Shown: piece after piece, positions 1-298 of the stretch | Position numbering within the stretch: the first letter of the stretch is position 1 | Layout of the letters: the number at the start of each line of letters is the position of its first letter | Assembly: GCF_003334305.1 (NCBI RefSeq) | Contig: NZ_QOWS01000086.1 | From: Escherichia coli | Lineage (GTDB): Bacteria > Pseudomonadota > Gammaproteobacteria > Enterobacterales > Enterobacteriaceae | Direction: 5' to 3' (one strand) | Length of the DNA: 298 bases | The notes under the pieces: model-generated | Told to the model about the DNA's origin: nothing | The model's database searches: none | The model's input: only the letters and a program-made list of their open reading frames with translations | Position numbers and translations under genes: made by a program

Positions 1-1
1 T

Positions 2-77
2 TGGTGGGTCGTGCAGGATTCGAACCTGCGACCAATTGATTAAAAGTCAACTGCTCTACCAACTGAGCTAACGACCC
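2..77 (-). tRNA. lysZ: tRNA-Lys (anticodon UUU), complete, 76 nt including genomically encoded CCA
   Basis: Seen in sequence: the reverse complement of 2-77 reads GGGTCGTTAGCTCAGTTGGTAGAGCAGTTGACTTTTAATCAATTGGTCGCAGGTTCGAATCCTGCACGACCCACCA. It folds as a canonical cloverleaf: acceptor stem GGGTCGT/ACGACCC, D-stem GCTC/GAGC, anticodon stem GTTGA/TCAAT (one G-U pair), 7-nt anticodon loop CTTTTAA with anticodon TTT (plus-strand 42-44 = aaa), 5-nt variable loop, T-stem GCAGG/CCTGC with T-loop TTCGAAT, discriminator A, then CCA. Established knowledge: this matches the E. coli-type tRNA-Lys(UUU) as I remember it. The paralog symbol is tentative: lysZ is the downstream gene if the 146-bp spacer is the lysY-lysZ interval of E. 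coli K-12, which I recall but cannot verify; all paralogs share one sequence, so the name depends only on genomic position. Confidence 0.96.
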
Positions 78-111
78 ATACGGGTGTTACCTGAAAGATT
101 TCTACTCGGGG

Positions 112-128
112 CCAATCTTTAAGATTGG
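112..128. repeat. Perfect 7-bp inverted repeat (ccaatct / agattgg) with 3-nt loop, overlapping the CCA of the tRNA-like fragment
   Basis: Seen in sequence: 112-118 ccaatct pairs with 122-128 agattgg, loop 119-121 tta. In the transcript it is CCAAUCU-UAA-AGAUUGG, whose first three nucleotides are the CCA of the pseudo 3' end. A second copy of aaagatt at 94-100 can pair with aatcttt at 114-120, giving a mutually exclusive alternative stem. Confidence 0.35.
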
Positions 129-143
129 TGTGTCGTGCAGGAT
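124..143 (-). repeat. tRNA-Lys 3'-end-like fragment (degenerate partial copy of T-stem 3' strand + acceptor 3' strand + CCA) inside the spacer
   Basis: Seen in sequence: 124-143 attggtgtgtcgtgcaggat versus 222-241 attggtgggtcgtgcaggat, 19/20 identical with a single t/g difference at 131. Similarity is lost beyond 144: gactcgc versus tcgaacc in the real gene. On the transcribed strand it reads ATCCTGCACGACACACCAAT, against ATCCTGCACGACCCACCAAT at the real 3' end. No intact cloverleaf can be built around it, so it is not a functional tRNA. Confidence 0.6.
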
Positions 144-168
144 GACTCGCTTCGCTTGCCCTACGGGC

Positions 169-184
169 CGTTGCTGGCGCAACG
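169..184. repeat. GC-rich 6-bp inverted repeat (cgttgc / gcaacg) with 4-nt loop
   Basis: Seen in sequence: 169-174 cgttgc pairs with 179-184 gcaacg, loop 175-178 tggc. No U-tract follows on either strand, so it is not an intrinsic terminator. Confidence 0.35.
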
Positions 185-197
185 TTATCCTTCACGC

Positions 198-220
198 TTA
201 ACATCTGAGTTTGATGTTAA
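198..220. repeat. Perfect 8-bp inverted repeat (ttaacatc / gatgttaa) with 7-nt loop, AU-rich, beginning 4 nt after the CCA end of the upstream tRNA in transcript orientation
   Basis: Seen in sequence: 198-205 ttaacatc is the exact reverse complement of 213-220 gatgttaa, with loop 206-212 tgagttt. In the minus-strand transcript this is UUAACAUC-AAACUCA-GAUGUUAA, 3 nt after the CCA of the 224-298 tRNA. Function is not determinable from sequence. Confidence 0.4.
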
Positions 221-223
221 AAT

Positions 224-298
224 TGGTGGGTCGTGCAGGATTCGAACCTGCGACCAATTGATTAAAAGTCAACTGCTCTACCAACTGAGCTAACGACC
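224..298 (-). tRNA. lysY: tRNA-Lys (anticodon UUU), 75 of 76 nt present; 5'-terminal G truncated by window edge
   Basis: Seen in sequence: 223-298 is identical base for base to 1-76, so 224-298 is the same tRNA from the encoded CCA (224-226, tgg on plus) through tRNA nucleotide 2. Nucleotide 1 would lie at position 299, outside the window. Anticodon at 264-266 (aaa on plus = UUU). The paralog symbol is tentative, as for the first copy: this is the upstream gene of the pair in the transcribed orientation. Confidence 0.94.

Follow-up and report, generated by a model that had tools for sequence, protein, structure and literature searches.

We assigned the window, by which we mean the whole 298-nt stretch of DNA analysed, to the lysT tRNA operon of Escherichia coli, with a probability of roughly 95% that it runs from a lysY lacking only its initial base, through the transcribed lysY-lysZ spacer (146 nt), into the tRNA-Lys(UUU) gene that follows. 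The gene pair is already known as an ordinary and well-studied part of this operon; the locus is a textbook one, and the finding as given is not new. The 71-nt middle of the spacer is predicted to form small hairpins closed by a helix that uses a copy of the tRNA-Lys 3' end. It belongs to a family of tRNA-linked repeats (TLRs) that has been known for decades, and the window's copy most probably serves as a structured part of the spacer that can be dispensed with.

The two tRNA genes were identified concordantly by ARAGORN, whose two minus-strand calls (2-77 and 224-299) were both tRNA-Lys(ttt), and by the Rfam tRNA model RF00005 (79.2 and 71.1 bits with a gathering score of 29, the second match being flagged as 5'-truncated), in agreement with the preliminary description of two minus-strand Lys(UUU) genes, the second partial. 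The complete gene with encoded CCA (2..77, minus strand; anticodon 42-44) is the orthologue of K-12 lysZ, and the other gene (224..298, minus strand; anticodon 264-266), whose base G1 lies beyond the window, is the orthologue of lysY. The copies are identical to K-12 lysT at 76/76 and 75/75 positions, the latter corresponding to lysT bases 2-76, and carry the anticodon UUU at tRNA positions 34-36. Alignment of bases 1-76 and 223-298 confirmed the 100% identity noted at the outset, and an exact repeat of 76 nt within 298 nt is far above chance expectation. The start-to-start distance of 222 also stood, but not its reading as the period of a tandem array, as the window holds just two copies and one interval. 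In K-12, the following Lys-to-Lys interval is 208 bp, and the sole tandem unit reported by TRF for the operon is a 304-bp Val-Lys-spacer unit in 1.9 copies. Weak Rfam plastid and YrlA matches on the tRNA sequence fell far under their gathering scores and were rejected, as were five open reading frames of 23-54 aa, four of which overlap the tRNA genes and the fifth of which lies inside the TLR, with no support for any of them.

The complete gene occupies 2-77 instead of 1-76: the trailer starts directly after each CCA, at base 1 and base 223, with an A in both copies, and the spacer, placed at 78-223, remains 146 nt long. Base 1 (1..1, minus strand; A in the RNA sense), which follows the CCA of the downstream gene, is compatible with the K-12 type, in which lysZ is followed by AUUUAAAGG, and with the W2-5 type, in which the terminator AUGUAAAAAAGCGCC comes next; it is incompatible with the FREC5 type (UCCUGAAUG), a 297/298 match.

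The internal transcribed spacer (78..223, minus strand; 146 nt) is identical to the K-12 lysY-lysZ spacer at 142/146 positions, with differences at window positions 223, 157, 131, and 102. The figure of 146 bp given for this interval in the preliminary description agrees with the K-12 annotation. Comparison with the other K-12 spacers gave 119 identical columns for lysW-valZ and 103 each for lysT-valT and lysZ-lysQ, which places the window at lysY-lysZ rather than lysZ-lysQ. A match to the window was present in all 5,426 complete E. coli genomes of the annotated genome collection, which does not include Shigella or other species; the matches listed include 298/298 identities in strain W2-5 and 14 further chromosomes. 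The chromosomal context (pal-cpoB ... nadA) was read from K-12 and from the exact-match strain W2-5, and in both strains the operon is flanked by cpoB and nadA. No observation spoke against the assignment to this locus. It is extremely unlikely that the window derives from a mobile element, for instance a tRNA array on a phage or plasmid, or from bacteria outside the genera Escherichia and Shigella: 11 of the 33,822 matching places are on plasmids, but the full-length exact matches are chromosomal and located between cpoB and nadA, and other genera have spacers of another length and sequence.

The K-12 lysT operon is expressed as a single transcript of ~1,100 nt from the lysT promoter, and both its processing and its essentiality have been documented (PMC4176162, PMC11480407); the whole operon is needed for growth because five of the six tRNA-Lys genes sit in it. 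Processing starts with removal of the terminator by RNase P, which next cleaves the tRNA 5' ends one after another, moving 3' to 5' along the transcript (PMC4176162); each Lys pre-tRNA is therefore left with a long 3' trailer, namely the spacer behind it. The trailer is removed by RNase II and PNPase, and RNase T completes the end, whereas RNase E cleaves the long lysT spacers solely when RNase P is disabled (PMC4176162). In the window, the RNase P site falls at the 77/78 junction, in line with the RNase P processing reported for the operon (PMC4176162). The distal 48 nt of the spacer (78..125, minus strand), forming the 5' leader of the downstream tRNA, contain the hairpin CCAAUC-UUAAA-GAUUGG. 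At the proximal end, the minimum free energy (MFE) fold places a trailer hairpin UUAACAUC-N7-GAUGUUAA (198..220, minus strand) 3 nt past the lysY CCA, and the K-12 lysW-valZ spacer has an identical stem with another loop. A pattern scan found no promoter-like site in the window, as expected if its genes are co-transcribed from the lysT promoter. The lone terminator-like site of the same scan was rejected, being on the plus (antisense) strand and corresponding to TLR hairpin P2 read backwards.

The TLR itself (126..196, minus strand; 71 nt) is a short-form, Lys-type element of the Rfam RtT family, detected with RF00391 at 51.7 bits (gathering score 45, E = 1.7e-9) in an alignment in which model positions 1-~58 fall on lysY with a 44-nt insertion, and the spacer element matches just the 3' half of the model. 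It begins 27 nt past the lysY CCA, within the tRNA operon. PMC8144298 traces the family to a first description in 1978 (Egan & Landy) and a catalogue in 1999 (Rudd). The hallmark of these repeats is an 18-19-bp copy of the 3' end of the upstream RNA (PMC8144298), and the window has such a pseudo-3' end (AUCCUGCACGACaCACCA; 126..143, minus strand), which copies the last 18 nt of tRNA-Lys at 17/18 positions, with a C-to-A mismatch at window 131; the K-12 allele matches at 18/18. The 20-nt repeated fragment noted earlier exists, but its extent is larger: it is a 25-nt direct repeat (119..143, unstranded, with its partner at 217-241; 23/25 identical) that bounds the insertion or deletion of the TLR and is composed of the last 18 nt of tRNA-Lys (17/18) and 7 nt of trailer (6/7). 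Likewise, the spacer is unique inside the window apart from this repeat, as had been stated, but genome-wide it holds a member of the TLR/RtT family. The K-12 operon gave five RtT matches, one for each long spacer and one after lysQ, and spacer alignment identified the TLR core in every long spacer of that operon. The window allele has substitutions at two TLR positions that are otherwise almost invariant, 157 and 131.

The structure of the element was assessed by aligning 23 short-form Lys copies from 7 genera. The closing helix P1 would be formed by the 5' strand CGUGAAGGAU (187..196, minus strand), which can pair with 134-143 at 9/10 positions with one A.G mismatch. It would enclose hairpins P2 (CGUUGC-GCCA-GCAACG; 169..184, minus strand), with a stem invariant in all 23 copies and a loop varying at 3/4 positions; P3 (GCCC-GUA-GGGC; 158..168, minus strand), with an invariant stem and a GUA or GAA loop; and the mini-hairpin P4 (GC-GAA-GC; 149..155, minus strand), which in other copies reads GAC-GAA-GUC or GGC-GAA-GCC. 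At the pair thus added to P4, 8 copies have A-U and 11 have G-C, and pairing is kept throughout. Overall, the P2 and P3 stems and 7/10 P1 pairs are invariant and the loops vary; 95.4% of cells are paired versus 27-46% when the partners were slid. Just one pair changes on both sides, too little covariation among the short-form Lys copies to establish the structure. Compared with shuffled sequence, the spacer has the more stable fold (z = -4.2). Thermodynamics do not pick out P1, which appears in the MFE structure of the TLR folded by itself (-25.1 kcal/mol) and in that of the window. For the 146-nt spacer, however, an alternative pairing is 2.5 kcal/mol better and the P1 probability is ~7%; in the whole-spacer MFE, the P1 5' strand pairs with AUCUUUCA further downstream.

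The association of TLRs with different tRNAs was analysed in a cross-species set of 148 TLR cores located <=400 nt downstream of a tRNA. The upstream tRNAs were Lys, Tyr, Arg, and Pro, and the core was also found outside Enterobacterales, in Amphritea and Marinobacterium. A copy of the cognate tRNA 3' end was present at 18/18 positions in 120 of the 148 cores and at 17/18 in 13 more, versus a best match of 14/18 for the non-cognate 3' ends used as a control for the same cores. The P1 5' strand tracks the tRNA type (Lys, CGUGAAGGAU/AUCCUGCACG; Tyr, GGGGAAGGAU/AUCCUUCCCC), and the Amphritea Lys element has the closing helix CGUAUAGGAU/AUCCUAUACG. For Pro-type elements, the closing helix was no better than the control.

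The occupancy of the spacers by TLRs is a mosaic among strains and among genera. Roughly a quarter of complete genomes appear to lack the window's TLR, as ~1,290 of the 5,426 (about 24%) match solely the distal part of the spacer. Three of the four partial matches listed cover spacer positions 81-146 and one covers positions 33-85; the one genome read, DA33135, is of the 81-146 kind, lacks the TLR, and keeps just the distal 48 nt (78..125) of the spacer. The number of TLR copies per operon is five in K-12, three in FREC5, two in SCPM, and zero in DA33135, and the breakpoints of the TLR-less alleles fall exactly at the tRNA 3'-end repeat. Thus, the view of the window as an ordinary core-genome locus holds for the tRNA genes, but not for the 98-nt TLR-bearing part of the spacer, which is variable. 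A description of this presence/absence mosaic was not found in the literature searched. The lysT operon itself has 6 or 7 genes depending on the strain, and the window's downstream gene is the final one in 6-gene strains such as W2-5. A junction query for 6-gene operons returned 399 genomes at >=80% coverage, a rough figure since separate pieces on either side of the repeated tRNA are joined into one match. The varying gene number and the mosaic of spacers show that the repeated units do recombine. Identity of the tRNA copies would be maintained by purifying selection on tRNA-Lys in combination with gene conversion or recombination between the units, and recombination on the 18-25-nt repeat shared by the tRNA 3' end and the pseudo-3' end, as well as on the 76-nt genes, probably adds and removes TLRs and whole genes.

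Whether the element is anything more than a spacer module was weighed against these data. An origin from an additional tRNA-Lys gene that decayed down to its 3' end, instead of membership in a distinct repeat family, could account for the 18 terminal nucleotides copied from tRNA-Lys and for the Rfam RtT alignment, whose 5' half is placed onto tRNA-like sequence via the lysY T arm. It is nevertheless very unlikely, and we rejected a tRNA-Lys pseudogene as the source of the 18-nt fragment: the core (GUUGC..GCAACGNCCCGNAGGG) also occurs downstream of Tyr, Arg(ACG), Arg(CCG), Pro(UGG), Pro(CGG), and Pro(GGG) tRNAs, each non-Lys copy ends in the 3' end of its own upstream tRNA, the spacer element has no remnant of a D arm or anticodon arm, and the retention of stems across genera with varying loops is unlike neutral decay. 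More plausible, while still a minority reading, is a functional RNA module with a compact body and a tRNA-like end that tRNA 3'-end enzymes release or trim, and that may insulate tRNA folding or act as a small RNA; its putative processing would involve an RNase E cut just after CCA followed by exonuclease trimming. The conserved stems with varying loops in 7 genera, the compensatory P4 pair, the closing-helix strand that follows tRNA type, and the z-score of the spacer fold point in this direction. So do the relatives RrA, RrB, and RrF, which are processed RNAs binding Hfq and CsrA, and for which the authors who studied them propose that RNase E is guided by the repeated 3' end (PMC8144298). 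Against such a role, no function is known for any TLR of a tRNA operon, the original tyrT claim having been withdrawn, and 19 tRNA-linked TLRs scored <0.01 as CsrA binders (PMC8144298). Moreover, wild-type cells degrade the lysT spacers as 3' trailers with RNase II and PNPase, and cleavage of these spacers by RNase E occurs solely with RNase P off (PMC4176162). The changes of the window allele at the near-invariant positions 157 and 131, together with whole lineages devoid of the element (DA33135 lacks all five TLRs and ~24% of genomes appear to lack the window's copy), argue against an important function. Even as a dispensable module, the TLR may, through its tRNA-like 3' end, receive the 3'-end processing signals of a tRNA, as has been suggested for the rRNA-linked members of the family (PMC8144298).

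The origin of the mosaic raises a related question. It is unlikely that TLRs, instead of being passive spacer repeats, form a cassette that is site-specific or driven by recombination, that tRNA 3' ends acquire and lose time and again, and whose closing helix co-evolves with the host tRNA. It is also unlikely that they act, or acted in the past, as a duplicative element with tRNA 3' ends as insertion sites, copying 18-25 nt of the target; the TLR-free spacers would then be empty sites and not the products of deletion. Insertion of a duplicative element would be consistent with the precise presence/absence bounded by the direct repeat of tRNA 3' end and trailer, with the mosaic occupancy among strains and genera, with the occurrence of one core at seven tRNA types and in Amphritea and Marinobacterium, and with the identity of the 12 nt past the pseudo-3' end to the 12 nt past the tRNA in 38 of 135 cases. 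However, no enzyme is associated with the TLR, and slippage or recombination classically deletes the sequence between direct repeats such as these, 98 nt apart. Filled and empty spacers could also be shuffled, without transposition, by unequal exchange involving the identical Lys genes, and the tyrT repeats are a plain tandem duplication. If the cassette reading were true, nature would already have run an experiment in the lysT operon, with a TLR copy number of 0, 2, 3, or 5 depending on the strain and about a quarter of genomes apparently devoid of the window's copy, and both the origin of TLRs and any role in tRNA maturation would be directly testable. The TLR mosaic provides natural, isogenic-like contrasts for probing what TLRs do. 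Supposedly unique spacers in enterobacterial tRNA operons often contain tRNA-linked repeats.

Among known systems, the closest is the K-12 pair b0747-b0748, which shares with the window both tRNA-Lys sequences, the spacer length of 146 nt, and the orientation relative to cpoB/nadA, as seen in the exact-match strain. The differences are the four spacer substitutions (223, 157, 131, and 102) and the size of the operon, which has 7 genes in K-12 versus 6 in W2-5, where the window's downstream gene is terminal. The rttR element of the tyrT operon, the type of RtT/RF00391, shares with the window TLR its place in a tRNA operon, right after a tRNA gene, the core hairpins (GUUGC..GCAAC, GCCCGNAGGGC), and an ending that copies the last 18 nt of the upstream tRNA and would take part in the closing helix. 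The window TLR is of the short form, with 71 nt compared to about 118-130 nt, its pseudo-3' end matches at 17/18 in the window allele, and it scores 51.7 bits with RF00391 compared to 133-137 bits for the tyrT copies. Unlike the tyrT and long-form elements, it has no T-arm-like segment, and the Rfam model therefore aligns the genuine lysY T arm in its place. RrA, RrB, and RrF, found downstream of 5S rRNA in rrnA, rrnB, and rrnD, belong to the same family and have the same 18-nt 3'-end hallmark, but sit between two rRNA-operon terminators and give detectable RNAs of 173 and ~115 nt; they bind their protein partners Hfq and CsrA in vitro, whereas the lysT copies scored <0.01 as CsrA binders. The spacer 3'ETS-leuZ and the internal spacers of metZ-metW-metV were reportedly found by Lalaouna et al. 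in 2015 to be sponges for specific small RNAs. The window spacer is likewise a transcribed spacer of a polycistronic tRNA precursor.

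The window was matched in all 5,426 complete E. coli genomes, with coverage of at least 80% in 4,272, and every one of the best 15 listed of the 5,426 genomes matched at 298/298. The lysY-lysZ interval of K-12 is exactly 146 bp, and the window spacer agrees with it at 142 of 146 positions (differences at window 223, 157, 131, and 102) versus just 103-119 identical columns for the other long spacers of the K-12 operon, which upholds the placement given in the preliminary description. The window is distinct from K-12 itself. In strain W2-5, which matches at 298/298, the operon has six genes, the downstream gene of the window being the last, with the terminator AUGUAAAAAAGCGCCCUAAAGGCGCUUUUUUGC directly after it. 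The finding holds up, its interpretation is correct in the main points, and it concerns an ordinary, well-described locus. Upstream of the K-12 operon (L001, the K-12 locus, 1-128), Rfam also identified a CpoB/ybgF thermometer (RF02782, 119.2 bits), which is unrelated to the tRNA pair.

ARAGORN and Rfam agreed on two minus-strand tRNA-Lys genes with anticodon ttt, the second partial as anticipated: one at 2-77 (79.2 bits with the Rfam tRNA model) and one placed by ARAGORN at 224-299, of which 224-298 lies inside the window (71.1 bits, flagged as 5'-cut). The lysT gene of K-12 is identical base for base to both copies. Comparison of the window with itself gave 100% identity between 1-76 and 223-298 at a spacing of 222, as had been reported for the gene copies. 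The gene register is 2-77 and 224-298; in each copy the first trailer base beyond CCA (1 and 223, respectively) is A, so the repeat looks shifted by one base. The spacer proper occupies 78-223 (146 nt). What had been noted as a short internal fragment is a direct repeat of 25 nt (119-143 vs 217-241, 23/25 matching) composed of the last 18 nt of tRNA-Lys (17/18) and 7 nt of trailer.

The lysT operon of K-12 is transcribed from the lysT promoter as a single transcript of ~1,100 nt, from which RNase P first removes the terminator and then releases each tRNA 5' end in the 3' to 5' direction; RNase II and PNPase clear the long 3' trailers of the Lys pre-tRNAs, RNase T completes the trimming, and RNase E cleaves the long spacers solely in the absence of RNase P activity (Agrawal, Mohanty and Kushner, PMC4176162). 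A pattern scan revealed no promoter-like site in the window, consistent with co-transcription. Deletion of the transcription unit requires complementation, since tRNA-Lys from lysV alone is insufficient (PMC11480407).

Described beforehand as unique sequence, the spacer in fact carries a tRNA-linked repeat (TLR), a member of the known RtT RNA family and the sole substantive omission from that description. The family model (RF00391) matched 126-292 on the minus strand at 51.7 bits (gathering score, 45), a result that derives in part from alignment of the 5' half of the model onto the real T arm of lysY, over a 44-nt insertion. The TLR itself spans only 71 nt (126-196, minus strand) and is therefore counted as a short form. 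The K-12 operon contains five RF00391 matches, one per long spacer and one after lysQ, the long spacers being matched because they share one core, which in side-by-side reading is ...CGUGAAGGAUAACGUUGC-N4-GCAACGGCCCG(A/U)AGGGCGAG(A)CGAAG(U)CGAGUC AUCCUGCACGACCCACCA; its final 18 nt, hereafter the pseudo-3' end, are the 3' end of tRNA-Lys. The window allele carries G-to-A at 157, just after hairpin P3, and C-to-A at 131, within the pseudo-3' end, the two positions being G and C, respectively, in 22 of 23 aligned short-form Lys TLRs. The spacer is matched at ≥99% in 1,465 E. coli genomes.

A scan of a species-representative genome collection with the core pattern GTTGC-N4-5-GCAACGNCCCGNAGGG yielded at least 120 stretches, mostly from Enterobacterales (Citrobacter, Enterobacter, Pantoea, Serratia, Yersinia, Erwinia, Edwardsiella, Gilliamella, and others among the matches listed), the other genera listed being Marinobacterium, Amphritea, Marinobacter, Alloalcanivorax, and one Pseudomonas. 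For 148 cores among the matches listed, a same-strand tRNA lay no more than 400 nt upstream; 120 of these had an 18/18 copy of the 3' end of that tRNA within 90 nt and 13 further cores a 17/18 copy, whereas the 3' ends of other tRNA types, used as a control, reached 14/18 at best. The upstream tRNAs of the cores listed were Lys(UUU), Tyr(GUA), Arg(ACG), Arg(CCG), Pro(UGG), Pro(CGG), and Pro(GGG). Among the matches listed, the 12 nt that follow the pseudo-3' end are also identical to those that follow the tRNA in 38 of 135 elements. Outside Enterobacterales, the hallmark was confirmed for Amphritea and Marinobacterium only, among the matches listed. An origin of the TLR from a decayed Lys gene was considered and rejected, as the element belongs to a family with ends that follow the host tRNA across tRNA types. 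Loci of the Oceanospirillales-type genera (L031:3248-3362 from an Amphritea MAG; L054 and L086 from Marinobacterium) have TLR cores with an 18/18 tRNA 3'-end copy; the T stem of Amphritea tRNA-Lys differs, and the pseudo-3' end shows matching changes, as does the strand it pairs with.

Opposite the first 10 nt of the copy, the pairing strand varies with tRNA type: CGUGAAGGAU/AUCCUGCACG for Lys, GGGGAAGGAU/AUCCUUCCCC for Tyr, CAGGGAGGAU/AUCCUCCCGG for Arg(ACG), and CGUAUAGGAU/AUCCUAUACG for the differing Lys of Amphritea. Among the matches listed, 34/40 Lys elements and 28/31 Tyr elements were paired at 9 or more of the 10 positions of this closing helix (P1), compared with 2/200 and 10/155 non-cognate controls; Pro-type elements were no better than the non-cognate control. 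In an alignment of 23 distinct short-form Lys copies (Escherichia, Citrobacter, Pseudocitrobacter, Phytobacter, Pluralibacter, Enterobacter, and one further enterobacterium), the P2 stem, the P3 stem, and 7/10 P1 pairs are invariant, the P2 and P3 loops are variable, and the mini-hairpin P4 has one pair, never broken, that switches between A-U (8 copies) and G-C (11 copies). Overall, 95.4% of cells are paired, a share that drops to 27-46% after the partners are offset by one to three columns. This pattern is in keeping with a selected fold, but the invariance of most stem pairs means that it hardly amounts to proof. The spacer RNA (-44.4 kcal/mol, z = -4.2) is predicted to be more stable than shuffled sequence. 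The closing helix is part of the minimum free energy structure of both the TLR alone and the entire window. Folded within the 146-nt spacer, it competes with a rival pairing that is better by 2.5 kcal/mol and has itself ~7% probability.

The window spacer is covered at ≥80% in 4,066 of the 5,426 complete E. coli genomes, with a smaller match in ~1,290, and the lysZ-lysQ spacer of K-12 is full length in just 1,996. Three of the partial matches listed cover spacer 81-146, that is, the pseudo-3' end and the distal 48 nt, and one covers spacer 33-85; in the partial matches listed, spacer 81-146 was aligned on annotated tRNA-Lys. Window 126-223, the 98-nt TLR-bearing segment from the lysY CCA to the pseudo-3' end, was set against L125:1219-1266, L124:1437-1469, and L001:1724-1869. 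In the strains read, this segment is a precise presence/absence polymorphism with breakpoints exactly at the 18-25-nt direct repeat, the missing part in the example strains always running from the tRNA CCA to the CCA of the pseudo-3' end. K-12 has seven tRNA genes and five TLRs; W2-5 has six genes, the last being the downstream gene of the window, and four TLRs; FREC5 has seven and three, with a 33-nt lysZ-lysQ spacer and without a terminal TLR; SCPM-O-B-8794 has seven and two, in lysY-lysZ and lysZ-lysQ only; and DA33135 has seven and none, with spacers of 35, 2, 51, 3, 48, and 33 nt. Comparable mosaics occur in related genera, and no description of the polymorphism in E. coli was found in the literature searched. 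The number of tRNA-Lys genes also varies, as W2-5 (L002:1780-2900) lacks one Lys gene and the lysZ-lysQ spacer relative to K-12 (L001:1055-2320). A junction query placed the six-gene form in perhaps ~400 genomes, an unreliable count, as pieces were joined across the repeated tRNA.

The 222-bp period proposed for the array did not hold. Tandem Repeats Finder (TRF) detected in K-12 (L001:1244-1821) a 304-bp Val-Lys-spacer unit in 1.9 copies at 97% identity, corresponding to valT-lysW-spacer and valZ-lysY-spacer, and the cluster is therefore made up of nested duplications. The K-12 spacers form two subfamilies, one of lysW-valZ and lysY-lysZ and the other of lysT-valT and lysZ-lysQ, distinguished by the P3 loop, the length of P4, and the proximal trailer. 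Downstream of lysQ (L001:2154-2345), the terminator AUGUAAAAAAGCGCCCUAAAGGCGCUUUUUUGCUAU is present twice, after lysQ and after the terminal TLR, so the duplicated unit comprises TLR, tRNA 3' end, and terminator; this terminal TLR is a long form with an inverted T-arm fragment (GAUUCGAACCUGC). Together, the strain mosaics and the duplications show frequent recombination between repeated units, which supports the earlier suggestion of gene conversion as a possible cause of the identity of the copies, alongside purifying selection.

The name tRNA-linked repeats is established in the literature, which counts 22 TLRs at ten K-12 loci, one to five each, and gives as their hallmark 18-19 bp identical with the 3' end of the upstream tRNA or rRNA (PMC8144298). 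At tyrT, the family-defining locus, we found four RtT matches (133-137 bits), each ending in AAUCCUUCCCCCACCACCA, the tRNA-Tyr 3' end. Lys-type TLRs come in two sizes (loci L021, L031, L048, L050, L051, L087, L093, L095, L108, L109, L111, L119, and L120): short, of 71-74 nt, in Escherichia, Citrobacter, Enterobacter, Pluralibacter, and Phytobacter; and long, of 101-115 nt, in Pantoea, Erwinia, Rosenbergiella, Hafnia, Mangrovibacter, Mixta, Cedecea, and Amphritea, the latter with an additional T-arm-like segment (…GCAGGUUCGAGUC…), like the tyrT RtT. A function is known for none of the tRNA-operon TLRs, an early claim for that of tyrT having been withdrawn; in the rRNA-linked RrA, RrB, and RrF, the repeated 3' end is suggested to direct the same RNase E cleavage that occurs after 5S rRNA (PMC8144298).
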